Source: Candidatus Iainarchaeum sp. (GTDB lineage: Archaea > Iainarchaeota > Iainarchaeia > Iainarchaeales > CSSED10-239). Taken from it: a stretch of DNA of 32,000 nt. Below, in pieces: positions 561 to 27,675 of this stretch. How positions within the stretch are numbered: the stretch's first letter is position 1; every line of letters starts with the position of its first letter. The DNA lies in contig JAQVTI010000009.1 in assembly GCA_028700115.1 (NCBI GenBank), positions 1 to 32,000 on the forward strand. The letters run 5' to 3'. Made by a program: the position numbers and the translations under genes. The notes below the pieces were generated by a model that saw only the letters and a program-made list of their open reading frames with translations, searched no databases and was not told the DNA's origin.

Positions 561-570
561 TTTTTAAATT

Positions 571-649: not shown

Positions 650-655
650 ATATAT

Positions 656-1597: not shown

Positions 1598-1630
1598 TAT
1601 TATTAATGAGAACTTTTCACTTTTGGTTGA

Positions 1631-1691
1631 GCTGGTTTCGGTCAGCTCGTACCCAATAGCTCGGTTGACGCGCAATGGTTTTGATAATTTA
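1631..1691. other. GC-rich 61-nt segment with hairpin, interrupting an att-like repeat (possible structured RNA or insertion)
   Basis: gagctggtttcggtcagctc forms a 6-bp stem (gagctg/cagctc). The segment is far more GC-rich than its flanks. It separates acttttggtt from aaattcctgccagaag, which are contiguous in the copy at 3783-3810. Confidence 0.3.
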
Positions 1692-1692
1692 A

Positions 1693-1706
1693 ATTCCTGC
1701 CAGAAG
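1693..1706 (+). repeat. degenerate copy B of the tRNA-Thr 3' end (attcctgccagaag)
   Basis: Compare cccgccagaagc at 545-556 and 3798-3809. The T-stem is no longer complementary in this copy. Confidence 0.4.
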
Positions 1707-1779
1707 TTTTGTGCACAAAAAAAAGTAATTTGTGCATTTGAAAGACACATTTAAAAACTTATTCTTTCATATATATAAT

Positions 1780-3042: not shown

Positions 3043-3044
3043 TT

Positions 3045-4016: not shown

Positions 4017-4511
4017 ATGTTTCCAAATTTGAAAAATAAACATCTAAATGATTCTTTTTTTACTGCAAAAGATATAATTAAATATCTTAAAAAAAATAAA
4101 GTTTATCCTAAGTTTGAAATTCCAAAAGCTGTTATTTTTTGTTATGATAGATCTTTCTTTAATGATTTATTAAAAAAAGAAAAGCTTACTAAGACTAATT
4201 TTTATAATTTATATTTAATTAATAATACAAATAATAAGATAGGTATAATAGGTGGATTTGGAATAGGTGCTCCAAGTGTTGTTAGACTATTTGAAGAATT
4301 AATTGCTTTGGGTATTAAGAAATTTGTAAGTTTTGGAACATCTGGAACTCTTCAAAAAGATATTAATGTTGGAGATTTAGTTATTTGTAATAGAGCTATT
4401 AGAGATGAAGGGGTTTCTCATCATTATATTAAATCTTCAAAATATGCTTTTTCTTCTGATAAACTTTTAAAAAAAGCAAAAAATATATTTGATAAAAAAG
4501 CAAAAAAATAG
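4017..4511 (+). pseudogene. nucleoside phosphorylase (PNP/UDP family), C-terminally truncated
   Basis: GIIGGFGIGAPSVVRLFEELIALGIKKFVSFGTSGTL...VGDLVICNRAIRDEGVSHHY matches the PNP_UDP_1 core. The ORF stops about 30 aa after RDEG, where family members continue for roughly 100 aa or more (length recalled from memory). Confidence 0.5.
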
Positions 4512-4746: not shown

Positions 4747-4878
4747 ATGGAAAAAATTAATCAACAAGTTAGTCAACAAATTAATATAGATAAATTATTT
4801 GTAATTAAAAAATTACCCATAACATCAAAAGAAAAAAATGGGATCTTTGAAGCATGGGTTGAATCCAGTGATTTGTAG
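4747..4878 (+). CDS. candidate precursor peptide of cluster 1 (43 aa)
   Basis: Hand translation gives MEKINQQVSQQINIDKLFVIKKLPITSKEKNGIFEAWVESSDL*. A tggag motif lies 9 nt upstream of the ATG, and the stop lies 6 nt before the PqqD-like gene. Not in the ORF track (too short). Confidence 0.5.
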   Translation: MEKINQQVSQQINIDKLFVIKKLPITSKEKNGIFEAWVESSDL

Positions 4879-7759: not shown

Positions 7760-8074
7760 ATGAAATATGGTATTGAGTATATAGTTAAAAAAGATTTCTT
7801 AGGTACTATTAAAATTATAAAGAATAGATCTGATTTTAATAAAGTTAATGAAAATGATATTATTTTATTATTAAACACAAGTCCTGATGTTATTTTGTTA
7901 TTTAATAAAATTAAAGGTGTTATTATTGAAATAGGAGGCCAAACATCACATTTAACAATTATTGCAAGAGAGAGTAATATGCCTCTAATTAGATTAAATA
8001 ACGCTAAAGAAATAATTACAGATGGCGATTTTGTAAAAGTAGTTGAGGGTAATATTTATGTTAATGAAAATTGA
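7760..8074 (+). CDS. stand-alone PEP-utilising enzyme mobile (phosphohistidine swivel) domain protein
   Basis: DIILLLNTSPDVILLFNKIKGVIIEIGGQTSHLTIIARESNMPLI...DGDFVKV matches the GGxTSHxxIxARExxxP swivel-domain signature. Confidence 0.8.
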   Translation: MKYGIEYIVKKDFLGTIKIIKNRSDFNKVNENDIILLLNTSPDVILLFNKIKGVIIEIGGQTSHLTIIARESNMPLIRLNNAKEIITDGDFVKVVEGNIYVNEN

Positions 8075-9065
8075 GGTTCTTTGTAAAAAGATAGCTAAAG
8101 ATATATCTATAATACAAAAAGGAGGGGCAATTGAAACTCAGTGGCCTTTTTTAACTTCAGAAGTAGAAAACTATATTGGTGTTGATTTTATCAAACATTT
8201 AAGTAATATATTAGATGAAGCTTTATTAAACAATAATATAACACAAATTGCTACTAAATTGAAATACCCTTCAATGATAACTCAATATATTGCTTTGATT
8301 CATAGTGCAAATGTATTACCTCTTAATAAAAGAATTGAATTAATAACTAATTTAATAAGTATAATAGAAGAATTAAGAATGGACTATTTATGTAATAAAG
8401 GTATTAATATATTGCAAAATTTTGATATTAGTAAATTTTTATCTAATGATATTAAACAAGATATTATTCCTCAAAAGATATCTAGTATTTTATATGCTTA
8501 TACTGAAAAATTATATCCTACTTTAATGCGTTTGTCATTTGAACATCATGGTCCATATATTTTTAATAAAAAAAAATATGTTGTAAAAGAATATTTTAAT
8601 CTTAAAAATCAATATTCAAATATGTTTCCTGTTTTTAACTATGATAATGTTAAAATAATTCAAGAAATAGAAGGAGATTTTAATGTTGATTTTTTTGGGC
8701 ATTCAATAGGAGATTATAAAATAGTTAATTCGATTTTAGTTGTAGATAATGAAATAATTAGTGACACAAATAAATTTTTAGAAGAAATATTAATTAATTT
8801 TATTAATTTAGATAAGTTATTTTTAGAATATACTGTTGAAGATTATGCTAAAAATTTAACAAATGGATTGTTTTATTCTTTAAAACCATTAACTACTTTA
8901 ATTAATAAAGATTGGGTTCCATCTAAAAATATAATTGCTAAATTAAATGGGTTTAAATTATTTTTTCCTAGAGATAAAATTATTAATTATATAAAGTCTA
9001 CAGATATAAATGAAATAGAATTTAAAGTGTACTTAAGTTTTAAAAATATTTTTATTAAAGATTAA
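8058..9065 (+). CDS. unknown-family protein, conserved partner of the swivel-domain protein (paralog of 22952-23833)
   Basis: Overlaps the previous gene. By-eye homology to the cluster 2 protein: CKKIAKDISIIQKGGAIETQWPF vs CNKISKDMFYLCISGSTIHNWPL, and DFFGHSIGDYKI vs SFFGHIFKVEEI. No motif I recognise. Confidence 0.6.
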   Translation: MLMKIEVLCKKIAKDISIIQKGGAIETQWPFLTSEVENYIGVDFIKHLSNILDEALLNNNITQIATKLKYPSMITQYIALIHSANVLPLNKRIELITNLISIIEELRMDYLCNKGINILQNFDISKFLSNDIKQDIIPQKISSILYAYTEKLYPTLMRLSFEHHGPYIFNKKKYVVKEYFNLKNQYSNMFPVFNYDNVKIIQEIEGDFNVDFFGHSIGDYKIVNSILVVDNEIISDTNKFLEEILINFINLDKLFLEYTVEDYAKNLTNGLFYSLKPLTTLINKDWVPSKNIIAKLNGFKLFFPRDKIINYIKSTDINEIEFKVYLSFKNIFIKD

Positions 9066-10792: not shown

Positions 10793-11947
10793 ATGAATTA
10801 CAAAAATTTTAATCCTTTACTTTTTTTAATGTCTTTAGGTGCTGGGGGTATTTCAATTATTCCTTTTGCGTTTTTACAATATACTTTTTTTAGTTCAAAA
10901 GGACTTGTTACTTTATCTGATGTATTAAGTTCAAGTTTAAGTATGTCTCAATTAGTTTTATTTAATTTTTTATTTATAGTTATGATTGTTTTTGGATTAC
11001 TTCATTTAATTTTAAGTGTTATATTAATAAAACATTTAATTAAATGGATAAAAGAAGGAAGATATAAAGAAATGTTAAATAATCCTTTAAAAAACTCTGC
11101 TCTTTTAGCTCCATTTATTTCTATTATAATGACTTTAAATGTATTTATTGGTCCTATTAGATTTTTTATAAACCCTATTTCAAATAATCTTCAAAGTTTA
11201 ATGATTTATGCATTAATCTTTTGGGGTTTAATATGGTTATTTTTAATGTATTTAGATTTAAAGTTAATATCTATATCTTTTTTAAAAGATTTTGATGTTT
11301 CTAAAATAAATTTCGGATGGCTTTTACATTCTTTTGCATTAGGTATGGCTTCTGTAACTGGTTCTGGAATTGCAGCTTTATCTCAAAATATTTTAATTGC
11401 ACACATTGCTGCATTCTTATCAACAATTTCTTTAAGTTTAGGTTTATTTTTATTAATAGTAAAACTAATAACTTTATTTAAATTCCATTTTGAATCAAAA
11501 GGATTACCTGATAAGCAATTTTTACCTAGTTTTTTAATAGTTATTCCAAATGTAACTTTATTTGCAATAACTTTATTTAGATTAGGTCATTATTTAGAAC
11601 ATGCTTTTTCATTTTCATTAGGAGCTTATTTTTTAGTAGTTATTCTTTTAAGCTTTGTATTTGAAATCTGGTATTTTGGTTTTTCTTTATTTTTACTTAA
11701 AGATTATTTTAAAAAACACTTTTTTAAAAAAGAATTCTATATATCTCAATGGGGGCTTGTTTGTCCAGTTGTAGCTTTTGCTGTTTTGGGTAGTTTTTTA
11801 TATAAAGTATTTGTTCCTAATATAATATTATATATTGTAATAATAGTAGTTTTAATTATTTCAGTTGTTTTGTTTTTTATACTTTTTATAAGACAATTAA
11901 AATGTAGTAATTTTTTAAAAAGTAAAAGTTTTATATGTAAGAATTAG
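10793..11947 (+). CDS. multi-pass membrane protein, possibly TDT/TehA-SLAC1-type transporter
   Basis: About 10 hydrophobic segments. Weak resemblance to TehA-family segments (LPSFLIVIPNVTLFA; SQWGLVCPVVAFAVLG). It is the last gene of the low-GC island. Confidence 0.45.
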   Translation: MNYKNFNPLLFLMSLGAGGISIIPFAFLQYTFFSSKGLVTLSDVLSSSLSMSQLVLFNFLFIVMIVFGLLHLILSVILIKHLIKWIKEGRYKEMLNNPLKNSALLAPFISIIMTLNVFIGPIRFFINPISNNLQSLMIYALIFWGLIWLFLMYLDLKLISISFLKDFDVSKINFGWLLHSFALGMASVTGSGIAALSQNILIAHIAAFLSTISLSLGLFLLIVKLITLFKFHFESKGLPDKQFLPSFLIVIPNVTLFAITLFRLGHYLEHAFSFSLGAYFLVVILLSFVFEIWYFGFSLFLLKDYFKKHFFKKEFYISQWGLVCPVVAFAVLGSFLYKVFVPNIILYIVIIVVLIISVVLFFILFIRQLKCSNFLKSKSFICKN

Positions 11948-12016
11948 AAATCATAGAAGATTTAAGAAATTATATAATAAAAGAAAATAGTTGAAAAAAT
12001 ATAAAAAGAAAATAAA

Positions 12017-13369
12017 TTATTTTCTTATATATTTTTTATTTCTTGTTTTTTGTTTATTTTTAAATCTATCTTGATGTTGTCTTTTTCTGAATTTCTTTTC
12101 TTTGTCCTTAAAGTATTCTTTATCATCATCACTTTCTTTTTTTCTAGCAGATGCGATTTGGTCTTTAACTTCAGAAATTCTTTTATCAAATTGATTTCTT
12201 CTTCTTGAACCTTTTGTATCTCTTGCCTTAATGTTTTTAGATGGTTTTTTAAGTTCAAGATATTTAAATTCAGGAAGAGGCATTAAGTTTACATCAAATT
12301 TATTTTTACTACAAATCTTTAAGAAATCTTGTTTATCTTTAGTTGTAATAAAACTAATTGCTTTTCCTGTTTTTCCTGCTCTTGCAGTTCTACCTATTCT
12401 ATGTACAAATTGTGTTTTTTCTCTAGGTAGATTAAAATTAAAAATAAAATCTAAATTATCAATATGTAATCCTCTAGCAGAAACATCAGTTGATACTAAA
12501 CAAGAATGTTTATCTTGTGTATATTTTTCAATAATATGTGTTCTTTTTCTTTGTTCTAGTCCACCGTGAAGCTTATATGCATTTATTCCGTTTTCTTTAA
12601 GATTATATTCTACACTATCAACTAAAGTTCTTGTATTACAAAAAACAATTGATTTTTTAAATAAATTTTGTTTAAGTAAATGTACTAATAAAGATATTTT
12701 TTTATTTTCTGGAATTTTATAATATTCCTGAACAAGCATGCTTTTATCAACATGTACTTTTGCAGAAACTCTTTTTGCATTTTTCATAAACTTATTTTCT
12801 ATATTTTTAACATCTTTTGTAATTGTTGCAGAAAATAAAAGCATTTGTTTTTCTTTAGGCATATATCCTAATATTTTTTTAATATCAATAATAAAACCCA
12901 TATCACTCATTCTATCTGCTTCATCTAGAACAATATGTTTTACTTTTTTAAGATTTAAATTTCCTCTTTCAATATGATCTAATAATCTACCTGGAGTTGC
13001 AATTACAATATGTGCTTTTTTAATTTCTACAGTTTGGAATCTAATAGGTTCTCCACCATAAACTACACTTGATTTGATATGTGTGTTTTTTGTGAATTTT
13101 TTAGTTTCTTTATCAATTTGAATAGCAAGTTCTCTAGTTGGAGTAATAACTATTGCTTGTGCACCTTTTGTAACATCTAACTTTCCTAGAATTCCAGCTA
13201 AAAATGCAAATGTTTTTCCAGTTCCAGTTGCAGATTGTGCAATTATGTCTTCTCCTTTAATTACTAAAGGTATTGTTTTTTCTTGTATTTCTGTAGGTGT
13301 TTTATAACCTAATTTTTCTACAGTCTTAATTACATGTTCATCAAGACCTAATTTTTTAAATTCGTTCAT
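12017..13369 (-). CDS. DEAD-box ATP-dependent RNA helicase with K/R-rich C-terminal tail
   Basis: AQSATGTGKTFAF, PTRELA, VLDEADRM, SAT, HRIGRTARAG. Confidence 0.9.
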   Translation of the reverse strand: MNEFKKLGLDEHVIKTVEKLGYKTPTEIQEKTIPLVIKGEDIIAQSATGTGKTFAFLAGILGKLDVTKGAQAIVITPTRELAIQIDKETKKFTKNTHIKSSVVYGGEPIRFQTVEIKKAHIVIATPGRLLDHIERGNLNLKKVKHIVLDEADRMSDMGFIIDIKKILGYMPKEKQMLLFSATITKDVKNIENKFMKNAKRVSAKVHVDKSMLVQEYYKIPENKKISLLVHLLKQNLFKKSIVFCNTRTLVDSVEYNLKENGINAYKLHGGLEQRKRTHIIEKYTQDKHSCLVSTDVSARGLHIDNLDFIFNFNLPREKTQFVHRIGRTARAGKTGKAISFITTKDKQDFLKICSKNKFDVNLMPLPEFKYLELKKPSKNIKARDTKGSRRRNQFDKRISEVKDQIASARKKESDDDKEYFKDKEKKFRKRQHQDRFKNKQKTRNKKYIRK

Positions 13370-13486
13370 ATGTTTGTTTCCTTTTTTAATTTTATAAAAA
13401 TAGATTGGTTTTAAATTATATATATTTTTTTCTATTAGTATATATAATTTAAGTAAGCATTTGTTTATAAAATAAGGTTTTTAGGC

Positions 13487-14281
13487 TTATTTTCTAAGTT
13501 TCCATAATTTTTTCTTACTTCTCTTAAAACCTTCTTTTTTATATGCAGCAACATGCATACCTCTTCCTCTTGTTTTAATTGCATTTATTTCTTCTGTAAC
13601 TAATTTTTGTAAATGTTTTGTTTTTTCTTTAGGTAAGACTCCTATATTAAATAAATATGCTTCTTCTGAGTTTATTTTTCCTTGATGTATTAGATTATAA
13701 AATACTTTTTCAGAAAAAGGTTTGTTATATCCTTTATGATGTTTTGGGTTTAGAACTTTTAATCTATCAGAAGGATATGTTTCTTTAAATATTTTAATAA
13801 CTTCATTAAGTATACTTTTATTTTTCATATGTTTAAAAAAAGAACCATTTAGTCCTTGTATATTTCCTAAGATAATATGTGTTTTTTTAGATTTATCTAA
13901 AAATATATCAAAGTTAAATTTAGCAATTGCATTTTCTGTATCTTTTGCATTATATATATTTATACTTATACCAAAAGGCTTATCTGCCCAGGTAGATAGT
14001 TTTATTTTTAGATTTTTATTTTCAAATTTGTTTTGAATTTCTAAAAATTCTTTTGAGAATGTATCTAATATGTTTACTTTTTTAGAAAGGGTATCTTTTC
14101 CAGAAACATTTTGTTTGTATGCAAGTATGTTTTGTGTATTTTTAAGAAATACATTTATATTTCTAAACCCATAATAATAAATTGCTTTTTGTAAAATAAG
14201 TTTTTGTTTATAATCTAATTTTTTAATTTCTTCTTTTTTAAGACCTATAGATAATAGTTCTTTTTGTGATATTAATTTCAT
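13487..14281 (-). CDS. hypothetical protein
   Basis: 264-aa ORF with core-like composition and no recognisable motif. Confidence 0.5.
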   Translation of the reverse strand: MKLISQKELLSIGLKKEEIKKLDYKQKLILQKAIYYYGFRNINVFLKNTQNILAYKQNVSGKDTLSKKVNILDTFSKEFLEIQNKFENKNLKIKLSTWADKPFGISINIYNAKDTENAIAKFNFDIFLDKSKKTHIILGNIQGLNGSFFKHMKNKSILNEVIKIFKETYPSDRLKVLNPKHHKGYNKPFSEKVFYNLIHQGKINSEEAYLFNIGVLPKEKTKHLQKLVTEEINAIKTRGRGMHVAAYKKEGFKRSKKKLWKLRK

Positions 14282-14325: not shown

Positions 14326-15747
14326 TTATTTCTTCTTTGTGAAAAATTCAATAGCAACTTCTAGTTCTTTATGTGTTTTTGCATATTCTTCAATTGAAAT
14401 TCCTTTTTTATATGCCTCACATGCCTGAACTAAAGCCATTGCTCCTTCTTTTGTACCATTTGGATGAGCATGACAACCTGCACCCATAGTTGTAATAAAG
14501 TCAACTCCACCCATAACATCAATAAATGGTTTTAATAAAGTAGGGTTAAGTCCTCCTGAAACAATAGGTGTACATTTTTTTACACCTCTCCATTCATCTT
14601 CATCTAAGATAGCTTTGTGTGCATGATCTTTTTCTACATTTTCAATAAAATCTAAATCTTTTTCAGATATTTTACCCCAAGATTGATCAAAGAAAAATCC
14701 TTTTCCATATAAATCTAATATGTTTTTAGCAGCAGTGATGTCTGATTTAGGAGTTCCATCCATTTTTCCAACTCCAGCAGTTCCTGTATGTATCCCAGAA
14801 GCTCCTGCAAGTCTTGCAAATTTAGATAAAACTAAAACTGAAAATCCAAAATCATTTTCTGGTCTTGTAAAAGCACCGTGAGCTGCTCTATGGAAATGTA
14901 TAAAAACATCAGGATATCTTCTTCTTAGAGTTTGAACAGCCATCCATCCTGCAGTAATCCCATCTATTAAAAATGCATATGAACCTTTTTCAAATCCTGC
15001 ATTTTCAATCATTTCACATCTTTTAATCATTGTGTCAAAATCTGCAGCTGAAACATTAAAAGAGTGTACTTTTTTCTTTCCAGTCTCTTTTACTGCCTTT
15101 TCCATTGCGTTTTTTACATGTTTTACCATTTTATCGTATGGACAGAAGTCTTGGTCTGCTTGAGGCTCATCGTTTTTAACAAAGTCTCCTCCACCAACCC
15201 AGAAGTCATAACAAACTTCTGCATATTCTGCTGAAGTTAGTCCCATTTTTGGCTTTACAATTGTTCCTAGAATAGGTCTATTATAAACATCTAAGTATTT
15301 TCTCATATCATCAATTGTGTATGATGGTCCATCAAATTGTTCTAGCATAGAAGGAGGAAACCATAAGTCTAAAAGTTTAAGAGCAGAAACTTCTTTCATA
15401 CCTAAAACATTTCCTACAATGTAAGTTAGTATATTTTGTACATTTCCAACTCTATCAAAAAGTCTCCATGGATATGCAATCCATACAAGTTCTTTTTCTT
15501 GATCTAAGTCATAAACTAAAGCATTCATTTCTCTTGAGAATGCAGTTTCTGTTTGTACTTTAAAATTAGTCCCAGTTGAAGACTCAGCTGCAATTTCTGC
15601 TGCTGCTTGTAAGACATTTAGTCCTTTACCTTCTTTCATTCTAAAAACACAAAGAAGATATTCTCCATTTTTTGTGTTTGGTATATTAAAATTAACATAG
15701 GCTTTTTGTTTTTCATTTAAAGTTTCATATAATTCATTTTTATTCAT
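14326..15747 (-). CDS. rbcL: ribulose-1,5-bisphosphate carboxylase/oxygenase large subunit, form II/III-type
   Basis: AAESSTGTN, GTIVKPKMGL, CYDFWVGGGDFVKNDEPQ, HFHRAAHGA, ARLAGASGIHTGTAGVGKM, TPIVSGGLN. The core is form II-like, with an extra roughly 27-aa segment (KISEKDLDFIENVEKDHAHKAILDEDEWRGVKKC) before TPIVSGG. Confidence 0.9.
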   Translation of the reverse strand: MNKNELYETLNEKQKAYVNFNIPNTKNGEYLLCVFRMKEGKGLNVLQAAAEIAAESSTGTNFKVQTETAFSREMNALVYDLDQEKELVWIAYPWRLFDRVGNVQNILTYIVGNVLGMKEVSALKLLDLWFPPSMLEQFDGPSYTIDDMRKYLDVYNRPILGTIVKPKMGLTSAEYAEVCYDFWVGGGDFVKNDEPQADQDFCPYDKMVKHVKNAMEKAVKETGKKKVHSFNVSAADFDTMIKRCEMIENAGFEKGSYAFLIDGITAGWMAVQTLRRRYPDVFIHFHRAAHGAFTRPENDFGFSVLVLSKFARLAGASGIHTGTAGVGKMDGTPKSDITAAKNILDLYGKGFFFDQSWGKISEKDLDFIENVEKDHAHKAILDEDEWRGVKKCTPIVSGGLNPTLLKPFIDVMGGVDFITTMGAGCHAHPNGTKEGAMALVQACEAYKKGISIEEYAKTHKELEVAIEFFTKKK

Positions 15748-17884: not shown

Positions 17885-19144
17885 ATGGATAAAGATTATT
17901 TAGAAAGAATAATTTTAGATCAGTCTGAAGATCTTAAACAAATAGATTTAGGTTTACCTAGAGATAAACTTTTAGATTTAGATACTCAAATTAAATCAAA
18001 AATAAATATAATAATTACAGGTGTTAGGCGTTGTGGTAAATCTACTTTATTATTACAAATAATGAATAAATATTATAAAAATAAATTTTATTATTTAAGA
18101 TTTGCAGATGAAAGACTTTCAGATATAAAAATAGATGATTATCAAAAAATATATGAAATATTTCAATCAAATTTTAATATGAATAATATATTTTTTTTTG
18201 ATGAAATACAAGGTAAACCTAATTGGGATAAATTTGTTAATAGATTGTATGAAACTGGAAATAAATTTTATATAACTGGATCAAATTCAGAATTATTAAG
18301 TAAAGAAATATCTACTTATCTTACAGGAAGACATTTAGATGTTGAATTATATCCTTTTTCTTTTAAAGAATATTTAAATTTTAAAAAGATTAATTTAGAT
18401 TATAGATATTCAAAAAATTTAATAAAAATAGAAAAAGAACTAAATAACTATATAAAAATAGGTGGTTTTCCACAAGTTGTTGTTGAAAATAATTTAGTAT
18501 TACTTGAAGAAATATATGAAGATATAATTAATAAAGATATTTTATTAAGATATAATTTAAATGATGTAGCTATTTTTAAAAAAATAGCATTATTTTTAAT
18601 ATCAAATATATCAAAAGAATTTTCATATAATTCTATTAAGAAAATGTACGATATAGGTAATTCTGATACTGTTAGAAATTATGTTTATTATCTTAAAAAT
18701 GCTTATTTATTATTTGAATTACCTAAATATGACTATTCTTTGAAAAAACAAGAAAGTTATTCTAAAAAGATTTATGCTATAGATACTGGTTTAATAAATA
18801 AGTTGGCTTTTTCTTTTTCTGAGAATATAGGTCGGCTTTATGAAAATTTAGTTTTTATAGAATTAAAAAGAAGAAATAAAAGGATATATTTTTGGAAAGA
18901 TAAATCTAATTATGAAATAGATTTTATAATTTTAGAAAAAAATAAAGTGACTTCTTTAATACAAGTTGTATATGATTTAAGTGATTTAAAAACAAAAGAA
19001 AGAGAAATAAGAGGCTTAATTTCTGGTTTAAAAGAATTTAAGCTTAAAGAAGGTATAATAATTACAAAAGATTTAGACAAAAAAGAAAAAATAGATAATT
19101 TAACTATAAAATATATACCTTTATGGAAATGGTTATTAGAATAA
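17885..19144 (+). CDS. AAA+ ATPase, AAA_14/DUF4143 family (paralog 2)
   Basis: TGVRRCGKST Walker A. Same length and end (KYIPLWKWLLE) as 1780-3042. Confidence 0.8.
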   Translation: MDKDYLERIILDQSEDLKQIDLGLPRDKLLDLDTQIKSKINIIITGVRRCGKSTLLLQIMNKYYKNKFYYLRFADERLSDIKIDDYQKIYEIFQSNFNMNNIFFFDEIQGKPNWDKFVNRLYETGNKFYITGSNSELLSKEISTYLTGRHLDVELYPFSFKEYLNFKKINLDYRYSKNLIKIEKELNNYIKIGGFPQVVVENNLVLLEEIYEDIINKDILLRYNLNDVAIFKKIALFLISNISKEFSYNSIKKMYDIGNSDTVRNYVYYLKNAYLLFELPKYDYSLKKQESYSKKIYAIDTGLINKLAFSFSENIGRLYENLVFIELKRRNKRIYFWKDKSNYEIDFIILEKNKVTSLIQVVYDLSDLKTKEREIRGLISGLKEFKLKEGIIITKDLDKKEKIDNLTIKYIPLWKWLLE

Positions 19145-19389: not shown

Positions 19390-20682
19390 ATGTTAGATAT
19401 AAAATATATCAGAGAATATCCTGATAAAGTAAAAGAAAACCTAGAAAAGAAAAATAGATCAGATAAGTCCTTTTTAGTTGATGATATTTTAAAATTAGAT
19501 GAAGATTATAGAGCTTTAATAAAAATTGTAAATGATTTAAAACATCAAAGAAATAAAATTACAGAAAACATAAAACAAGAAAAAATAAAAGGAAATGATA
19601 CTTCTGATTTAATCTTAGAAGCAAAAGAACTTCCTGGTAAAATAAAAGAAAAAGACGAAGAATTAAAAGCTCTAAAACTAGAACTTCTAAAATTACAAAA
19701 CCAAATACCAAACATAGTAAGTCCAGAGACACCTTTAGGAAAAGATGAATCTGAAAACAAAGAGATTGAAATGTATGGTGAGATTGTAAAAAAAGATTTT
19801 AAAATAAAGCATCATGGTGAAATTTTAGAAAAACTAAATGTTTTAGATCTAGATTCAGCTAGAGAAAACTCAGGAAAGGGATTTTATTATTTAAAAGGAG
19901 ATTTAGCTCTTTTAAATAATGCACTTATTAGATATGCACAAGATATCTTTGCAAAAAAAGGATATACATTTATCTTACCTCCTTTAATGATAAATAAACA
20001 AGCATGTGATGGTGTTATTGATTTTGAGTTTTTTAGAGATATGGTTTATAAGATAGAAAATGAAGACTTATATCTAATAGGTACATCAGAACATCCATTA
20101 ATTGCAATGTTTATAAATAAAGTTATTCCTGAAGAAAACTTGCCTATTAAGCTATATGGATTTTCAAGTTGTTTTAGAAAAGAAATAGGTGCTCATGGAC
20201 TTGATGAGAGAGGGCTTTTTAGACTTCATCAATTTGATAAGGTTGAACAAGTTGTAATCTGTAAGCCAGATGAATCTATTCAAATATTTGATGAACTTAA
20301 AAACAATACTGTAGATTTATTTAAATCTCTAGGGCTTCCTACAAGGGTTTTAGAACTTTGTACAGGAGATTTAGGAGATCATAAGTATAGACAAGTAGAT
20401 ATTGAAGTTTTTTCACCTAGAAAAAATGACTTTATTGAAGTAGGTTCTTGTTCAAACTTAACAGAAGCTCAAGCAATTGGTCTAAATATTAAGGTAAAAA
20501 ACAAACAATCTGAAAAATACTATGCACATACACTAAATAACACTGGAATTGCAACACAAAGAGCACTTGTTGCAATTGTAGAAAACTTTCAAACAGAAAA
20601 AGGAACAATTAAGGTTCCAGATGTTTTAGTGCCTTATATGTATGGAAAAGAAGAGATAGAAGTTAATCCTTCTTTCTTTTAA
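19390..20682 (+). CDS. serS: seryl-tRNA synthetase
   Basis: MLDIKYIREYPDKVKENLEKK plus a coiled-coil arm. Class II core: FRKEIGAHGLDERGLFRLHQFDKVE...TLNNTGIATQRALVAIVEN. Confidence 0.9.
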   Translation: MLDIKYIREYPDKVKENLEKKNRSDKSFLVDDILKLDEDYRALIKIVNDLKHQRNKITENIKQEKIKGNDTSDLILEAKELPGKIKEKDEELKALKLELLKLQNQIPNIVSPETPLGKDESENKEIEMYGEIVKKDFKIKHHGEILEKLNVLDLDSARENSGKGFYYLKGDLALLNNALIRYAQDIFAKKGYTFILPPLMINKQACDGVIDFEFFRDMVYKIENEDLYLIGTSEHPLIAMFINKVIPEENLPIKLYGFSSCFRKEIGAHGLDERGLFRLHQFDKVEQVVICKPDESIQIFDELKNNTVDLFKSLGLPTRVLELCTGDLGDHKYRQVDIEVFSPRKNDFIEVGSCSNLTEAQAIGLNIKVKNKQSEKYYAHTLNNTGIATQRALVAIVENFQTEKGTIKVPDVLVPYMYGKEEIEVNPSFF

Positions 20683-21255: not shown

Positions 21256-22185
21256 TTATTGTTGTTTATTATAAACTTTAACTATTTTTTTATAAAATTT
21301 ACACATTTCCATAAATTGATTAGGATTTGTCTTTTCTAAAAATTTGCACCCTCCTTTACAGTAATTCCATATTTCGCAATTTTTATTTAAACATATATTA
21401 ATATTATTTATTTTTTTTAGATTATATTTTTTATACATTGTTAATAAATGACATCTATCATAACTACCATCTGGAAATATTCCATAAGTTGTATTTTCAT
21501 AATAACCACAAAATTTATTTTTATTTAATTTATTATCTAAATAATTAAAAAAATAATTTGAAAATGGGGATATTTTTATATTTTTTTTATGAAGTGAAAG
21601 TATGTATTCTATATCTTTAATAGTTATTCTTTTTATAGAATTTATATTGGAAAAATTAAATCCTATGTAATTTGGATTTAATTTTAATAAATTAATTATA
21701 TTCTTTTTAAAATTAATTTTTGTAGATATTGTGGATGATATTTGTAATTGTATCCCTCCTTTTTTAATTAATTTAGCATTTGTTATAAGTTTTTTTATAT
21801 TGGTTGATCTATTTTTTAAATTAGTTTCAATAGGGTCAATACTTATAGTTATATTTTTAATACCCCAATTTTTAAGTTTTTTAATTGTATTTTTGTTAAT
21901 TAAAGTTCCATTTGTAATTATATTAAAATTGTAAATACCTAGTAATTTTAATCTTATTATAATTTTTTTAATGTTTTTTAAGTCTAATAAAGGTTCTCCA
22001 CCATAAAAAATAATTGTAGAATCCGATCTATATTTTTTTGGAACTAATAAGTTAATAGAATTTATAATATTATTTATGTCAAATGCATTTTTTTTATTTA
22101 ATAAATTAATTTTTTTTAAATAACAATATTTACAATTTAAGTTACAATTATATGTAGTTATTATAAATAATTTATATTTTTTCAT
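21256..22185 (-). CDS. radical SAM enzyme with SPASM/twitch-type C-terminus (cluster 2, distal)
   Basis: CNLNCKYC (CX3CX2C), YGGEPLL, and C-terminal CLNKNCEIWNYCKGGCKF. Confidence 0.8.
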   Translation of the reverse strand: MKKYKLFIITTYNCNLNCKYCYLKKINLLNKKNAFDINNIINSINLLVPKKYRSDSTIIFYGGEPLLDLKNIKKIIIRLKLLGIYNFNIITNGTLINKNTIKKLKNWGIKNITISIDPIETNLKNRSTNIKKLITNAKLIKKGGIQLQISSTISTKINFKKNIINLLKLNPNYIGFNFSNINSIKRITIKDIEYILSLHKKNIKISPFSNYFFNYLDNKLNKNKFCGYYENTTYGIFPDGSYDRCHLLTMYKKYNLKKINNINICLNKNCEIWNYCKGGCKFLEKTNPNQFMEMCKFYKKIVKVYNKQQ

Positions 22186-22619
22186 AATTCTTCTAAAATA
22201 TTAATGGTTTTTTCTAAATTATAATTTATAAATAAATTATCTCTTTTATTTTTATAATTTTTTATTAATTTATTTATATTATCGTTAATTAATATTGGAT
22301 CACAATTTAGAAATAATAATTTTTTACAGTTATTATAAAAATATGTGGTTAACAATAAATTATCTAGTATGTTATAATTTATTTTAACAAAAGTATTTAC
22401 CGATAAAGGATAAATTAAAATTAAATTTGGTTTTGGAATTGAATTAATATTACTCCATTCTATTTTTCTATTTTTTAAAAATTTGAATTTATTTAAATTA
22501 AATAAATTATATGAATTATTTGAAATACAATAATATACTTTATTTTTTTTAAGGATATTGTTAATTTTATCTAAATTCAATATATTTTGACCAGCACAAA
22601 CTAAAACATATATAATCAT
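22182..22619 (-). CDS. HFCD-type flavoprotein-like protein (LanD/EpiD/CoaC family), short form
   Basis: MIIYVLVCAGQN (Rossmann start) and YPLSVNTFVKINYNILDNLLLTT, compared with the family signature PASANT..K.A.G..DNLLT recalled from EpiD/Dfp. 145 aa, shorter than typical members. Confidence 0.5.
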   Translation of the reverse strand: MIIYVLVCAGQNILNLDKINNILKKNKVYYCISNNSYNLFNLNKFKFLKNRKIEWSNINSIPKPNLILIYPLSVNTFVKINYNILDNLLLTTYFYNNCKKLLFLNCDPILINDNINKLIKNYKNKRDNLFINYNLEKTINILEEL

Positions 22620-22948
22620 AAATTATCAATTGTAATGGTTTTTTTATTAAAATCAATTATTAATTTTTTATTATTTTTAAACAAATTTATATTATCTACT
22701 TTTATTAAAAATATTTTTTTTTCTCTAGCAAATATACTCATGTGACTTAAATAACTTCCATTTTCAATAATTCCCCCTAATGAATAAAGTAAATATGGAG
22801 AATCCATAGGGGTTAGGGATTTAGAAATTAGAATTTTATCTTTAATTTTATTTAAATTTGTATTATTTTTTAAAATCAAAGATTTTCCAGAAATTATTTT
22901 TGTCATATTAGATTTACTTAATATTTCAAATTTAATTTTATTTATCAT
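22616..22948 (-). CDS. stand-alone PEP-utilising enzyme mobile (swivel) domain protein, paralog of 7760-8074
   Basis: DKILISKSLTPMDSPYLLYSLGGIIENGSYLSHMSIFAREKKIFLI keeps the SH...ARE core of the swivel domain. Confidence 0.65.
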   Translation of the reverse strand: MINKIKFEILSKSNMTKIISGKSLILKNNTNLNKIKDKILISKSLTPMDSPYLLYSLGGIIENGSYLSHMSIFAREKKIFLIKVDNINLFKNNKKLIIDFNKKTITIDNL

Positions 22949-22951
22949 TTA

Positions 22952-23833
22952 TTATTCCTCTAAAAGATATTTTATGAAGTTATGTGTATTTTTAATTACT
23001 TTTGTTTTATTTTCAATAAATATACTTGCATCTTTATCAGTATCTACATTTAAATATTTGTTTACATCTAAAATATATTTATTTTTTAAATTAATATGAG
23101 TTGTGAATTGGTTATAAACATAATTAACTTTATCTTTATTTAATTTTAATTTTATATTTTTTTTAAGATTTATTAAATGTAGTGATAATTCATTTATTAA
23201 TTTATTTGGATTTATGGTTTTATTATTTTTCATAATTAAAAAATCATTTATTTCTTCTACTTTAAATATATGTCCAAAAAAGCTAATATCTGGTTTTTTT
23301 ATATAATTACTTATTAAAATATATTTTTGATTATTAATATTATATTCTCTATATAATTTCCCATTAAATGTGTATATGTTAAATCCAACTCCTCTAAAAA
23401 TTGGAAAATAAATTTCATTTAAATTATCTAATAAAAATACTGTAGAATAATATAATTCTCTATTTTTAATAAATCTACCTAATTTTAAGTCTTTATTTGG
23501 ATTTAATTTTAAATCCATTGTTTTTTCTAATGTTATGTCTTCATATTTATCAATTAAATAAGTTATTATTTTTTTAAAATATTTTTTTTGTGTAATTTTA
23601 TTTGTTTTTTTATTTATTAACATTAGTAAATATGATCTTAATTCAAAAAAAGAAATATTTGATATATTATTATCAATATAATCTTTAAGATATGGTGTGA
23701 AATTTTCTGCGAATATATTAGAAATTATGGTTGATGATAATGGCCAATTATGAATTGTAGAACCAGATATACATAGATAAAACATATCTTTACTTATTTT
23801 ATTACAAATTTTATTTATTAATTTCTTTTCCAT
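22952..23833 (-). CDS. unknown-family protein, partner of the swivel domain (paralog of 8058-9065)
   Basis: ATG at 23833 (MEKKLINKICNK..) is preferred because it abuts the upstream stop and aligns with the cluster 1 paralog. See the shared segments listed for 8058-9065. Confidence 0.6.
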   Translation of the reverse strand: MEKKLINKICNKISKDMFYLCISGSTIHNWPLSSTIISNIFAENFTPYLKDYIDNNISNISFFELRSYLLMLINKKTNKITQKKYFKKIITYLIDKYEDITLEKTMDLKLNPNKDLKLGRFIKNRELYYSTVFLLDNLNEIYFPIFRGVGFNIYTFNGKLYREYNINNQKYILISNYIKKPDISFFGHIFKVEEINDFLIMKNNKTINPNKLINELSLHLINLKKNIKLKLNKDKVNYVYNQFTTHINLKNKYILDVNKYLNVDTDKDASIFIENKTKVIKNTHNFIKYLLEE

Positions 23834-23834
23834 G

Positions 23835-24401
23835 TTATTCTGCCTTATATTTAAGTAATATATATTTATTTTCTTTAAAATAAATTTCAACACCAATATT
23901 TATTAAATCTATTGCCCTTATAGGTAATAAATTTTCACATAAAATTTTATTTTTGTAATTATTAGATAAATTTTGCCAATAATTATTTATAAATTTATTA
24001 TATTCTAAATTACTTAATTTTTTCTTAATTTTATTTAGGATTTCAGTTTCTTTTTTTTTATTAATTGAAATTATATGATAAAAAATACCTTTGTCTTTTA
24101 ATAATGATTTACATTTTTTAATAAATTTTATGCCATTATTTTTGAAATATATATCATTAAATAAATTTACTGAATATATTATATCATATTTTGTTTTATT
24201 AAAATTATATTTTAAAAAATCTGATTTTATATAATGTATTTTTTTTGTTTTTAAATTATTTATTTGAATTAAATCTAATAAAGTTATTTTATGGCCTTTA
24301 TTTAATAATTTTAAATAGTTTTTATTGTTATTAACCCCTATTTCTAATATATTTAAATTTAAAGTACTTGAAATATCATTATATATAATATCATATAACA
24401 T
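23835..24401 (-). CDS. methyltransferase-like protein (class I fold, degenerate SAM motif)
   Basis: LNILEIGVNNNKNY..HKITLLDL, YDIIYSVNLFNDIY and LLKDKGIFY follow the motif I / post-I / II-III order, but the GxGxG motif is not intact. Confidence 0.45.
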   Translation of the reverse strand: MLYDIIYNDISSTLNLNILEIGVNNNKNYLKLLNKGHKITLLDLIQINNLKTKKIHYIKSDFLKYNFNKTKYDIIYSVNLFNDIYFKNNGIKFIKKCKSLLKDKGIFYHIISINKKKETEILNKIKKKLSNLEYNKFINNYWQNLSNNYKNKILCENLLPIRAIDLINIGVEIYFKENKYILLKYKAE

Positions 24402-25536
24402 ATTTATCTTTTATTTTTATGATTTTGTTAAATAATTTATTGGTTACCGTACATAAAGGATCTGATCCTAAAAGTTCTTGTGCATAGATACAACCTCCAT
24501 ATCTTGCACACAAAGAATTATTTTTCAAATAACAATTTTTACAATCGTTTATTTTATAAGAATTATATAATTTGTTTTTTATATTATATATTTCTTTTAA
24601 ATCATTAATAAACTTTATATTTCCTAATTTATGTTTTTCTAAACCTACAAATCTATTACATAAGTAAATGTCTCCATTATTATTAATACCTAACATATTA
24701 TCTTTAGTAATACAACTAGTAGTAAATCTACAATTAGGTAAAGGCATATTAAAAAAAATAGCATCAATATAACTATCAAAATCTTTTATAGTAATTTTTT
24801 TATTTTCTAAATAATAGTTAAAACAATCGTATAAGAATTGCACATATTTATTAACTAAATTATTATCTACAATATTTTTTCCTCTTCCTACTGGATACAT
24901 TAAATTTATTTGTAAATCTACATTTAAATTATTATAAAAATCTATGTAATTTATAGGTTTTATTTTGTTTACAGTAAAATTATTTAATGTAGATAATACA
25001 TTAAATTTATTCTTATTTTTTTTAAGTATATTAATACCTCTTATAACTTGATTAAAAGAACTAAAATCATTTTTATTAACTCTATATTTGTCATTAATAA
25101 ATTTTGGTCCATCTAAACTTACCCCTATAGCAAAATTATTTTTTTTAAAAAATTTAGAATAATCTTCATCTATTAAAGTTCCATTTGTTTGAATTTTATT
25201 TACAAAATGAATATTTTTTGGGAATATATCTTTTTGTAAATCAATTATATTTTTATAAAAATCTAACCCAGCTAAAAGTGGTTCTCCTCCATGCCAGGCA
25301 TATTCTAAAGTTAGAAATCGCGGATTATATTTTTTGACTTTATTTATATCTTTTTTAGAATATATTGAATTTATATAATCTAAATTTTTATAAAATTCAT
25401 TAATAGTTAAATTAAATATTTTTTTAATTACATCTATAGATATTAAATCATATTTTTGATTGTATGAACCGTATGTATAACAATATTTACAATTTAAATT
25501 GCATGCATTTCCAACAGGTCTTATTGAATATCCCAT
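24391..25536 (-). CDS. radical SAM enzyme with SPASM domain (anSME/peptide-maturase-like; cluster 2, proximal)
   Basis: CNLNCKYC (CX3CX2C), HGGEPLL, and C-terminal CRFTTSC...LCNRF...CKNCYLKNNSLCARYGGCIYA. Confidence 0.85.
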   Translation of the reverse strand: MGYSIRPVGNACNLNCKYCYTYGSYNQKYDLISIDVIKKIFNLTINEFYKNLDYINSIYSKKDINKVKKYNPRFLTLEYAWHGGEPLLAGLDFYKNIIDLQKDIFPKNIHFVNKIQTNGTLIDEDYSKFFKKNNFAIGVSLDGPKFINDKYRVNKNDFSSFNQVIRGINILKKNKNKFNVLSTLNNFTVNKIKPINYIDFYNNLNVDLQINLMYPVGRGKNIVDNNLVNKYVQFLYDCFNYYLENKKITIKDFDSYIDAIFFNMPLPNCRFTTSCITKDNMLGINNNGDIYLCNRFVGLEKHKLGNIKFINDLKEIYNIKNKLYNSYKINDCKNCYLKNNSLCARYGGCIYAQELLGSDPLCTVTNKLFNKIIKIKDKYVI

Positions 25537-25544
25537 ATTATTTT

Positions 25545-25691
25545 TTAATATCCATCTACATATTCATCAGCACCGTGTGCTGTTTTTCTAACTAAATCAA
25601 AATAGATATTGTCTTTATCTAATTTATTTTTTTTAAGTAATTCATAATTTTTAAACCTACATTTTATTGCATTTGATTCAATTTTAGCCAT
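25545..25691 (-). CDS. candidate precursor peptide of cluster 2 (48 aa)
   Basis: Base-by-base hand translation gives MAKIESNAIKCRFKNYELLKKNKLDKDNIYFDLVRKTAHGADEYVDGY*. ggagga lies 8 nt upstream of the ATG, and the stop lies 8 nt before the rSAM start. Not in the ORF track. Confidence 0.5.
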   Translation of the reverse strand: MAKIESNAIKCRFKNYELLKKNKLDKDNIYFDLVRKTAHGADEYVDGY

Positions 25692-25774
25692 AAATTGATT
25701 CCTCCTAAATGTTTTTATTAGTATACATAAGGTTTTTATATGTTTCTTTTAAATTTTATTACTTTTTCAATTAA

Positions 25775-26452
25775 TTTTTTAGTTTCTGGATCATTATAAA
25801 AATCAGAAACACAAAGGCAGATATTATTAATTTAGTTAGAGTAGAAACACCTGAAATACCAGAACCTGCTTTAAGGGAATCAATATTAAATGCAATGATT
25901 CATAGAAATTATTTTATTCAAGGAAGAATATTAATAGAAATTTATGAAAATAGAGTGGAAATATTAAATCCTGGAAAACTATTATTTGATCCAAAAGAAT
26001 TTGGTAAAGTAAGTGTTTCAAGAAATCCTATATTAGCAGATTGTATATTAAGAACTAGTTTGATAGAAAAGATAGGTTCTGGTGTTAAAAGAATTAGAAA
26101 ATTAGTTCCAAATGTTAAGTTTAATATAGATACAGATTGGTTTAGTGTTATATTTAAAAGAGATATATCTACTAAAGTGGATAGTAAAGTAAGTGTGGAT
26201 GCCGGTATAAATGCACCTGTAAATGCACCTGTAAATGCACCTGTAAATGCACCTGTAAAATTAAATAATTTACAATTAAACATTATAACAGAAATACGAA
26301 AAAATAAAAATATAACTTATGATGATTTAAGTAATATATTTTCTATACATAGAACTACAATTATGAGAAATATTTCTAAATTAAAGAAATCAGGAATATT
26401 AGAAAGAATTGGATCTGATAAAACAGGATTTTGGAAAGTAAATAAAATTTAA
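25775..26452 (+). pseudogene. 5'-truncated remnant of an AlbA_2/HATPase_c_4-type ATP-binding wHTH regulator
   Basis: The frame is open from 25775. Family-typical ..EPALRESILNAMIHRNYF.. lies across the first ATG (25895). The C-terminal wHTH is ITYDDLSNIFSIHRTTIMRNISKLKKSGILERIG. The N-terminal domain of the family is absent. Confidence 0.5.
26209..26256 (+). repeat. perfect 12-bp x4 tandem repeat (aaatgcacctgt) encoding (NAPV)4
   Basis: Counted directly: units at 26209, 26221, 26233 and 26245. Confidence 0.9.
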
Positions 26453-26830: not shown

Positions 26831-27064
26831 ATGAAAAAATTATATTTTGATGTTGAAACTACAGGTTTAAATCCAGAAAAGCACGGTTTAATTCAATTTT
26901 CAGGAATAATTGAAATAGATGGTGAAATTAAAGAAAAATTTAATTTTAAAATAAAACCATTTGACTCTGATTTAATTGAAGAAAGTGCATTAAATGTAAA
27001 TAATATAAGTAGAGAAGAACTTAATTTATTTACAGAGCCTAATTTTATAAAAAAAGATTTTTAA
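26831..27064 (+). pseudogene. DEDD/DnaQ-like 3'-5' exonuclease, N-terminal fragment only
   Basis: The Exo I motif YFDVETTGL is present. The ORF ends after 77 aa, where it runs into repeat copy 27042-27223. Confidence 0.55.
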
Positions 27065-27067
27065 AAA

Positions 27068-27675
27068 TTATAATAATATTAACTTACCATAATCTGTTAA
27101 AGAAAGATTTCCATTAATTTCATTAACTAGACCTTTTTCTTTAAAATCTCTTATGTTATTATAAACTGCAGTTCTTCCTAGTTTTTTATTATTTGAATTT
27201 GCAAGTTCTGAAAGAGTTATTTTCTTTTTAGAAATAGTACTTAATAGATCATATGCATTTTTATTAATCTCAAAAGAAAGTTTAGGAATTGAAATCATTT
27301 TATTTATTTCTTGAGTAAAATATAATATTTCTTTTATTTTATTACTTCTTGCATAACAACCAAGCATAATACCAATAGACTTTGTTTTTCTTCCAGAAGT
27401 AATATCTCTATATATATTTCATTAATATCTTCATTATATACTTTATCTATTTCTTTAATAATTTCCTTTGCGATTTCATAAACTTCATAAACAGAAGTTT
27501 TAATTTCTTTAAATTTAATATGTTTAAATGTGTTTTTTAGTTTTTCTTTAGCTTCTTTTTGATGTTCATCTGGTTTTTTGTCTATTATTAGATAAATCTC
27601 TTCAGGATTTATCTTTGTAATAGCTCCAACCATTGGAGTAAAAGAATATGTGTTTGTGAATAATATTTTTTTCAT
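27068..27675 (-). pseudogene. Csa3/CARF-like N-domain plus wHTH regulator, frameshifted
   Basis: Track ORFs 27334-27675 and 27068-27367 overlap in different frames. Upstream of the second ORF its frame reads NIYRDITSGRKTKSIGIMLGCYA (a TGGxK-type CARF motif region). The frames meet at the (TA)4 run at 27409-27416. The C-terminal wHTH is ITLSELANSNNKKLGRTAVYNNIRDFKEKGLV. Confidence 0.5.

Follow-up and report, generated by a model that had tools for sequence, protein, structure and literature searches.

A probable radical-SAM RiPP-type operon with a phosphohistidine swivel module in a Candidatus Iainarchaeum contig

Background

What is a phosphohistidine carrier doing in an operon that otherwise looks like a peptide-modification pathway? 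The question is raised by a stretch of 32,000 nucleotides (positions 1 to 32,000 of contig JAQVTI010000009.1, Candidatus Iainarchaeum sp.), hereafter the window, in which two gene clusters combine radical S-adenosylmethionine (rSAM) enzymes with a stand-alone "swivel" domain and a protein of an undescribed family that we call the partner. Cluster 2, the subject of this work, consists of seven minus-strand open reading frames (ORFs) filling positions 25691 to 21256 (NCBI accessions MDD3178047-53), and we take its host to be a DPANN archaeon. The genomes of DPANN archaea are tiny, and these organisms are considered dependent on hosts. An earlier note, made from the sequence of the window, had seen in the two clusters a modular family of peptide-modification systems, and not a chance adjacency.

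We conclude that cluster 2 is probably a radical-SAM pathway of the ribosomally synthesised and post-translationally modified peptide (RiPP) type, with precursors of a new family and a phosphohistidine module that has no precedent, and that it occurs mainly in DPANN archaea. As for what this RiPP-type operon does, the reading that we favour, with moderate confidence, is that its first rSAM enzyme (rSAM1) cross-links Tyr-x-Asp and that a phosphohistidine (His~P) relay phosphorylates or activates the peptide.

Results and discussion

The seven genes are tightly packed, as had been reported earlier (overlaps of 4-11 nt and gaps of at most 8 nt). When recomputed, the junctions are a gap of 8 nt between the precursor gene and rSAM1, an 11-nt overlap of rSAM1 with a methyltransferase-like gene, gaps of 1 nt and 3 nt separating the partner gene from the methyltransferase and the swivel genes, respectively, and 4-nt overlaps of the swivel gene with a flavoprotein-like gene and of the latter with a second rSAM gene (rSAM2). 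The 1-nt gap is counted from the ATG at 23833 as the partner start, which matches the N-termini of homologues, and not from an upstream TTG. Close packing is common in compact genomes; the adjacency is nevertheless not a chance one, because the order of precursor, rSAM-SPASM and partner/swivel genes recurs in relatives that are 25-50% identical, and on this point the modular family proposed earlier is borne out. The 48-codon ORF opening the operon also has the ribosome-binding site ascribed to it: a Shine-Dalgarno sequence, AGGAGG, can be read at 25701-25706 (minus strand), 9 nt before the ATG, and it is the only full motif of this kind among the cluster 2 genes.

This first ORF (25545-25691, minus strand) encodes a 48-aa putative precursor peptide, MAKIESNAIKCRFKNYELLKKNKLDKDNIYFDLVRKTAHGADEYVDGY, and was also called as a gene by NCBI (MDD3178047.1). 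Across all 48 residues it is 46% identical to the precursor of L007 (such labels denote related loci throughout), with an E value of 2.6e-12. The C-terminus, Y-x-D-x-Y directly followed by the stop codon, is invariant at six independent loci, at each of which the short ORF lies immediately upstream of an orthologous rSAM-SPASM gene. In an alignment of five of the precursors Y44, D46 and Y48, the final residue, do not vary, and the sixth, from L018, follows the same pattern; the peptides end in ...HGADEYVDGY (window), ...HAEDEYADKY (L007), ...SWATEDYVDRY (L010 and L006), ...NWAGVDYVDRY (L005) and ...CWGQDYSDRY (L018). Conserved short ORFs are thus consistently present at the homologous loci, contrary to one of the refuting conditions that the earlier note had named, and a short conserved precursor gene beside a modifying enzyme, here at six loci, is the pattern by which a RiPP system is recognised. 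Moreover, the omega1-X2-X3 (aromatic-X-X) motif is the defining pattern of triceptide precursors (PMC11499958). This pattern is found as Y-V-D and Y-F-D in the window peptide, as about 10 inserted tandem Y-S-D repeats in the L006 precursor and as several Y-x-D motifs in that of L005.

The adjacent gene encodes rSAM1 (24391-25536, minus strand; 381 aa; PF04055 and PF13186), an anSME-like radical-SAM/SPASM protein and the putative peptide maturase, which carries 8 Cys in a full SPASM domain and lacks an N-terminal RiPP recognition element (RRE). Its orthologues are 50.5% (L007), 35% (L018, E 2e-61) and 29% (L006, E 4e-42) identical. The top NCBIfam model is the anaerobic sulfatase-maturating enzyme, anSME (TIGR03942, 187.9 bits against a cut-off of 349.45). 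DynA, PapB and the cyclophane-type models GrrM/OscB (106 bits), YhhB (101), AmcB (99), FxsB (87) and XyeB (66) match as well, all under their cut-offs (310-450 bits for the last five), which leaves rSAM1 outside the curated cyclophane synthases. Among PDB entries the top match is anSMEcpe 4K37 (E 3.5e-33); CteB and ChlB 9GM3, a triceptide synthase (E 6e-16), also rank among the best, the ChlB match covering the rSAM core only.

Both the top NCBIfam model and the top PDB match, together with the shared rSAM and 8-Cys SPASM architecture, could be taken to mean that rSAM1 is an ordinary anSME and the 48-codon ORF a spurious one in AT-rich DNA. Yet the score of 188 bits is well under the cut-off of 349, the window holds no sulfatase gene that could supply the substrate of an anSME, and the dedicated small ORF upstream is conserved in sequence and position at six loci, besides carrying the only full Shine-Dalgarno motif of the operon. 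The conservation of the precursor effectively refutes this explanation, to which we give next to no credence. A viperin-like defence role was also considered and dropped, as PADLOC returned only a generic rSAM match to pVip.

Cluster 2 resembles the triceptides and other rSAM cyclophane RiPPs (ChlB, XyeB, GrrM/OscB; DarE/DynA) in its short precursor upstream of an RRE-less rSAM-SPASM gene and in aromatic-X-X motifs that are repeated in some members (Y-S-D, Y-x-D). It differs from them in that rSAM1 is nearest to anSME and scores below the cut-off everywhere, in having Y-x-D-x-Y at the very C-terminus, in its DPANN hosts, and in a core that includes a swivel and an undescribed partner.

Three further genes of the operon appear to be accessory. 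rSAM2 (21256-22185, minus strand; 309 aa) matches PF04055 at 70 bits. Of the two SPASM enzymes announced by the earlier note, rSAM1 stands with its PF13186 domain, whereas rSAM2 has no Pfam SPASM match; it has a C-terminal region with 7 Cys (CX4CX5CX3C) and aligns nearly over its full length (residues 8-286) to the rSAM/SPASM model TIGR04084, and it also matches geopeptide and PapB maturase models below their cut-offs. No rSAM2 homologue occurs in L007, L006, L005 or L018. The class-I SAM methyltransferase-like gene (23835-24401, minus strand; 188 aa) matches PF08241 marginally (24.7 bits, cut-off 21.2); it is lineage-specific: of the related loci only L001, L013 and L014, which are near-identical, have it, and it is absent from L007, L006, L005 and L018. 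The flavoprotein-like gene of the HFCD/UbiX superfamily (22182-22619, minus strand; 145 aa) is likewise marginal: PF02441 scores 24.0 bits against 22.7 and covers only profile positions 5-86 of 162, the coaBC model gives E 3.9e-4, and the best related PDB match, 1QZU, is weak (E 0.37). It seems to be an accessory of one sub-lineage, as a 34%-identical homologue follows the swivel gene in L008, whose partner is 47% identical. Like LanD/HFCD proteins (EpiD, MrsD, TvaF) it is set in a peptide-modification operon, and its marginal PF02441 score is just over the gathering threshold; it differs from them in its length (only 145 aa), in matching an N-terminal half-profile, in standing outside the core and in the precursor, which ends in Tyr (...EYVDGY) and has no C-terminal Cys.

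The domain calls made earlier are therefore right overall by Pfam and NCBIfam, those of the methyltransferase and flavoprotein being marginal; both genes are indeed in the operon, but the HFCD assignment is a borderline one and neither belongs to the conserved core. Because L007, L006, L005 and L018 lack genes for the methyltransferase, the flavoprotein and rSAM2, these genes are, as far as gene content tells, lineage-specific tailoring extras outside the core, and other lineages carry peptidases (M16-like, HExxH) in their place. What is conserved is a core of four genes: a Y-x-D-x-Y precursor, in which further Y-x-D motifs often precede the terminal one, an anSME-like rSAM/SPASM enzyme, the partner and a swivel with an intact His.

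The swivel protein (22616-22948, minus strand; 110 aa) is a stand-alone phosphohistidine domain of the phosphoenolpyruvate (PEP)-utilizer type, matching PF00391 at 33 bits (cut-off 23.1). His69 aligns with phospho-His189 of Enzyme I, and the motif H-x-x-I-x-x-R-E, including this catalytic His, is invariant in 11 of 11 swivels from related loci; the protein thus has the swivel with catalytic His that marks PEP-utilising enzymes. Its best full-length models are the C-terminal swivels of PEP-synthase-like enzymes of the rifampicin phosphotransferase (RPH)/PigC type. No match to a PEP/pyruvate-binding TIM barrel (PF02896-type) was found in any cluster protein.

The partner (22952-23833, minus strand; 293 aa), proposed here as the acceptor-binding or catalytic subunit for the swivel, matches nothing in Pfam, NCBIfam, PHROG or PADLOC. 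Searching 5.8 billion proteins by word index returned one relative, 97% identical, while an HMMER profile run exhaustively against 1.84 billion representatives gave 40 family proteins at E<=1e-3, nearly all of 270-350 aa and none of them a fusion; no Pfam domain was found in any of 35 members. Conserved positions are D16, W30-P31, R/K97-x-D99, E140, P144, R147, D184 and H188, the last two lying in a "DFFGH" motif and position 147 being Met in the cluster 1 subtype. The AlphaFold2 model made from a 35-sequence alignment has a predicted local distance difference test score (pLDDT) of 93.3 and a predicted template-modelling score (pTM) of 0.91, superseding an earlier model from 3 sequences (pLDDT 47). 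It shows helices bundled at the N-terminus, an antiparallel sheet of five strands and further helices at the C-terminus. When compared by Foldseek with PDB entries released to April 2026, among which the RPH structures are presumably included, the model gave a best E of 0.046 and TM-scores <0.2, and BFVD offered no neighbour; sequence-profile searches of the PDB with partner alignments gave noise only. A degenerate ATP-grasp domain was tried as an identity for the partner and rejected, hhalign against PPDK_N giving a probability of 0.07%. By these comparisons the partner belongs to a family not described before, in which charged residues are conserved.

A swivel gene adjoins the partner gene in every locus examined, usually overlapping it and in either gene order (window, twice; L001-L003, L005-L008, L010, L011, L015-L018, L020 and L021). 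The same module is present in cluster 1, where the swivel gene (7760-8074) and the partner gene (8043-9065) lie on the plus strand at 7760-9065. The two partners, 293 aa in cluster 2 and 340 aa in cluster 1 (335 aa in the earlier note), are homologous (24% identity over 251 residues, E 1e-7), so that the refuting condition of unrelated partners, set by the earlier note, does not apply, and the exhaustive HMMER search places both inside one small family; the swivels are 37% identical (E 7e-8). The earlier note had described both the swivel-plus-partner pair and the pair of rSAM enzymes as shared by the clusters. This is specific for the former only: in an all-against-all BLAST every pairing of cluster 1 and cluster 2 rSAM enzymes gives 26-28% identity (E 1e-5 to 1e-7), with rSAM2 of cluster 2 matching the SPASM enzyme of cluster 1 at least as well as the second rSAM enzyme there. 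Since these pairings are all alike and at the level of the superfamily, the swivel and partner, and not the rSAM pair, constitute the specific shared module, and a specific paralogy of the rSAM pairs was rejected on the uniformity of the BLAST scores.

Cluster 1 has a precursor of its own, a 43-aa peptide ending in ...NGIFEAWVESSDL (4747-4878, plus strand) with a conserved C-terminal motif, ...(K)I-[AF]-E-[FA]-W-[IV]-E-[SA]-(S)D, found in the window, L002, L015 and L016. Peptides of this type end in ...G-K-I-A-E-F-W-I-E-S-D, the window one in ...GIFEAWVESSDL, and their ORFs lie immediately upstream of PqqD-like and rSAM-SPASM genes (L002 13093-13191, L015 with stop at 10100 and L016 with stop at 10910, all minus strand). 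In L002 the ORF overlaps the start of the annotated PqqD-like gene, so that gene callers easily miss it. From the C-termini of both precursor types a common core can be derived, an aromatic residue followed by V, I or A and an acidic residue close to the end, and the partner subfamilies follow the precursor type (Y-x-D-x-Y versus E-x-W-[IV]-E). On sequence grounds, the acidic residue is the common feature of the two cores, and the acceptor chemistry probably differs between the subtypes, with Trp for Tyr in the core and Met for Arg147 in the partner. A SLAC1/TehA-like anion channel gene (PF03595, E 1e-12) at 10793-11947 (plus strand), directly downstream of cluster 1, could encode an exporter of an acidic product.

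Another explanation is that the cluster 2 operon makes no secreted natural product but a peptide-derived redox cofactor similar to pyrroloquinoline quinone (PQQ) or mycofactocin. The C-terminal Tyr/Asp, cross-linked by the rSAM-SPASM enzyme, would then be excised by peptidases, and the flavoprotein and methyltransferase would convert it to a small quinone-like or lactam-like molecule for use in the cell. Both known systems and ours start from small peptides whose conserved C-terminal core pairs Tyr with an acidic or aliphatic residue, and all use rSAM-SPASM chemistry; the cluster 2 core is invariant, lies at the extreme C-terminus and ends in Tyr, as does that of MftA. Cluster 1 encodes a PqqD-like protein (its L015 counterpart matches PF05402) and an rSAM-SPASM enzyme matching the models of MftC and PqqE; an M16 peptidase, comparable to PqqF/G, is encoded in a sister locus; the two clusters fill about one-third of these 32 kb although the genome is a reduced one; and cluster 2 is without a transporter or immunity gene. 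Yet those MftC and PqqE scores come from the cluster 1 enzyme, not from rSAM1, and are far below their cut-offs (108 versus 265 bits and 89 versus 381 bits). No other signature genes are found: homologues of MftD/E/F and PqqB/C are absent, and the precursor ends in YVDGY, not in the ...GVY of mycofactocin. Furthermore, the variable tandem Y-x-D repeats of L005 and L006 are typical of multi-site RiPP products, and a family that is rare (40 representatives) and patchy is unlike an essential cofactor. We therefore regard a cofactor as an unlikely product.

Where, then, would the phosphoryl group come from? Neither the window nor any rSAM-type locus encodes an ATP-grasp or a PEP-binding domain. 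A stand-alone ATP-grasp protein of the PPDK_N type was found only in L020 (10102-11040, minus strand; Pfam E 7e-76) and L021 (9086-10030, minus strand), two independent loci without rSAM genes, where it lies 1.4-2.4 kb from the swivel and partner genes; the two proteins have 312 and 314 aa. L020 and L021 both have the partner, the swivel, a CN-hydrolase-like gene and PPDK_N, surrounded by AMP-binding, reductase, pyridoxal phosphate (PLP)-decarboxylase, GHMP-kinase, PRAI, DAHP-synthase or His-phosphatase genes, and L021 is bacterial by its adjacent dcw genes (MurE, PBP, RsmH). These neighbourhoods resemble an uncharacterised small-molecule pathway using the same swivel and partner module. The C-terminus of the CN-hydrolase-like protein of L020 (...PFVEDY) was considered as a substrate motif and dropped, being absent in L021.

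The PPDK_N gene near the pair is suggestive of a PEP-synthase-like phosphotransferase in split form, with the partner providing the acceptor site; by analogy, it is the arrangement to be expected if ATP-grasp domain, His carrier and acceptor site had been divided over three proteins. A precedent exists in phenylphosphate synthase, a split PEP-synthase-like enzyme whose His~P phosphorylates phenol (PMC7500099). Like phenylphosphate synthase, RPH and PigC/RedH, the module has a PF00391 swivel with catalytic His and, in L020 and L021, PPDK_N near the pair, and with phenylphosphate synthase it has in common a division over several subunits; unlike in these enzymes, its acceptor subunit has no detectable likeness in sequence or by Foldseek to solved structures, its rSAM-type loci have no ATP-grasp gene and its presumed substrate is a ribosomal peptide. 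"Phenylphosphate synthase" genes were annotated in hydrothermal-vent DPANN metagenome-assembled genomes in which the carboxylase was not found (PMC8091004), and, speculatively, such annotations may be parts of swivel systems of the present kind.

The same loci raise the possibility that the swivel and partner are independent of the peptide, a separate small-molecule phosphotransferase or metabolic module, the RiPP part being confined to the precursor and rSAM1. The pair occurs alone in L003 and L017, it follows a thiamine pyrophosphate (TPP) enzyme in cluster 1, and its surroundings in L020 and L021 are of the small-molecule type (AMP-binding, reductase, PLP decarboxylase, GHMP kinase, PPDK_N). 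However, in 10 of about 15 sufficiently flanked loci the pair adjoins or overlaps an rSAM-SPASM and precursor cassette, the association is kept at partner identities of 25-30% and in both gene orders, partner subfamilies track precursor types, and the L018 cassette consists of the four core genes alone. Since the adjacency is conserved at such low identity and the partner subtype matches the precursor type, we consider independence of the pair quite improbable.

The favoured RiPP-type pathway, in which cross-linking and a His~P relay act on the same peptide, would run as follows. The precursor, strongly translated, would be bound by the rSAM-SPASM enzyme. rSAM1 would cross-link an aromatic-X-acidic motif (Tyr-x-Asp and/or Asp-x-Tyr) as triceptide- and darobactin-type enzymes do, giving by analogy a Tyr-to-Asp three-residue cyclophane or a related C-C or C-O link. 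The swivel would be charged to His~P in trans by a PPDK_N-type ATP-grasp protein encoded elsewhere, comparable to those of L020 and L021, and would dock on the partner, whose conserved Asp/Arg/Glu/His cluster would form the acceptor site. The phosphoryl group might then pass to the Tyr phenol of the peptide, as in phenylphosphate synthase and rifampicin phosphotransferase, or, alternatively, to a carboxylate or carbonyl oxygen that is thereby activated, as in PigC. The methyltransferase, flavoprotein and rSAM2 would tailor the product last.

Several points weigh against this scheme. The cross-link and the phosphoryl-transfer chemistry, including the acceptor atom, are inferred, and rSAM1 scores too low for the curated cut-offs of all the named maturase families to which its sequence was compared. 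The ATP-grasp and PEP-binding domains missing from the rSAM-type loci belong here too, as does the lack, in cluster 2 itself, of any gene for an exporter, an immunity protein or a peptidase. The partner family also occurs without precursor or rSAM genes (L003, L017, L020, L021), so it is not intrinsically peptide-specific. Finally, since the aromatic residue of the cluster 1 core is Trp, phosphorylation of a Tyr-OH cannot be the function common to both clusters.

A bolder proposal, which we put forward tentatively and hold to be somewhat doubtful, is that these operons make a new archaeal (DPANN) class of peptides, in which a split phosphohistidine relay of the PEP-synthase type, with a new-fold acceptor, acts on cross-linked Y-x-D-x-Y, the partner being a portable His~P acceptor module that is also used in bacterial small-molecule clusters. 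In that case the relay would be a new enzymatic logic for modifying peptides, beside activation by YcaO, ATP-grasp and LanB/kinase. NCBIfam 20.0, Pfam and PADLOC yielded nothing that matches the cluster 2 system, nor did the searchable literature, and no publication was found that joins PEP-utilizer, swivel or PF00391 with RiPP, precursor peptide or radical-SAM. If our interpretation is true, RiPP biosynthesis would gain a new enzyme module, a phosphohistidine swivel with an acceptor of no known family, and a precursor family, also new, in which the C-terminal Y-x-D-x-Y is invariant. Having two such clusters in 32 kb suggests a part for modified peptides, or for a peptide-derived cofactor, in DPANN biology, possibly in host interaction. 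The system also offers a testable role for the orphan PEP-synthase/"phenylphosphate synthase" gene fragments in DPANN genomes (PMC8091004), and the minimal four-gene cassette of L018 is a ready-made construct for heterologous expression.

Related loci and genomic setting

The informative contigs among the related loci are all but one archaeal, judged by ribosomal proteins S27e and S24e, Spt4, TFIIB and PCNA, and Candidatus Micrarchaeota is among the GTDB names for them. L001, L013 and L014 are near-identical copies of the window operon. L007 has a 48-aa ORF, an rSAM-SPASM gene, a partner (39%), a swivel and two HExxH proteins; L018 has a 54-aa ORF, an rSAM-SPASM gene, a partner and a swivel, and nothing else; L008 has a partner, a swivel and the flavoprotein homologue. 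L006, L009 and L010 combine a short ORF, rSAM-SPASM, swivel and partner genes with a second swivel and partner pair and an M16-like peptidase on the opposite strand. In L006 this second operon (11019-13983, minus strand), convergent with the first, encodes the M16-like peptidase (HxxEH) and an uncharacterised 208-aa protein. L005 has a short ORF, swivel and partner beside a frameshifted rSAM-SPASM gene in three ORFs of 30, 166 and 186 aa (1069-2282, plus strand), either a pseudogene or an assembly error.

Among loci of the cluster 1 type, L002, L015 and L016 carry a TPP enzyme, swivel, partner and rSAM gene together with a divergent rSAM-SPASM and PqqD-like gene. Orphan pairs are found in L003/L004 and L017; in L003 a 54-aa ORF (11124-11288, plus strand) ending in ...KPEFYRDES follows the pair, is loosely like the cluster 1 precursor ends and may be a precursor. 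L011 has a TnpB/IS605 OrfB-like gene (74-1297, plus strand; 407 aa, with zinc-finger CxxC motifs) directly upstream of the pair; this 2.5-kb contig is binned as Persephonella, probably by mis-binning. A putative HExxH metallopeptidase without Pfam match is encoded in L007 (10003-10779 and 10784-11602), L015 (3842-5026) and L016 (3840-5024). It is common to L007, of the cluster 2 type, and to L015 and L016, of the cluster 1 type (E ~1e-19), is absent from the window, and is a candidate third component joining both cluster types. A search of GTDB genomes for further loci (alignment A4) returned none, and neither did two scans of viral contigs.

Within the window, which has a GC content of about 22%, cluster 2 is the most AT-rich part (16.5% GC, against 20.8% for cluster 1 and 23.7% for the rest of the window outside cluster 2), and may owe this to a horizontal origin or to relaxed constraints on composition. 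A promoter and terminator scan was uninformative in DNA of about 16% GC (74 sites versus 75 expected), and no tRNA genes or Rfam families were detected in the window. Gene fragments lie near the clusters at 3021-3620, 4017-4511, 26831-27064, 25895-26452 and 27068-27675, comprising two methyltransferase pieces, a PNP_UDP_1 piece, a 77-aa RNase_T piece, a HATPase_c_4/HTH protein with a (NAPV)x4 repeat and a Csa3/HFX_2341-like gene in two pieces; these truncated or split genes suggest decay or rearrangement around the clusters. Paralogous AAA_14/DUF4143 ATPases at 1732-3042 and 17885-19144 (plus strand), with near-identical C-termini (...KYIPLWKWLLE), flank cluster 1 and the housekeeping block. 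A RuBisCO large-subunit homologue at 14326-15747 (minus strand) has no small-subunit gene nearby; we take it to be form III-like, typical of the nucleotide-salvage pathways of DPANN and candidate phyla radiation (CPR) genomes. In the window (19390-20682), L002 (14012-15298) and L006 (1-977), seryl-tRNA synthetase is encoded no more than a few kb from swivel and partner clusters; either synteny kept between related DPANN genomes or chance could account for this.

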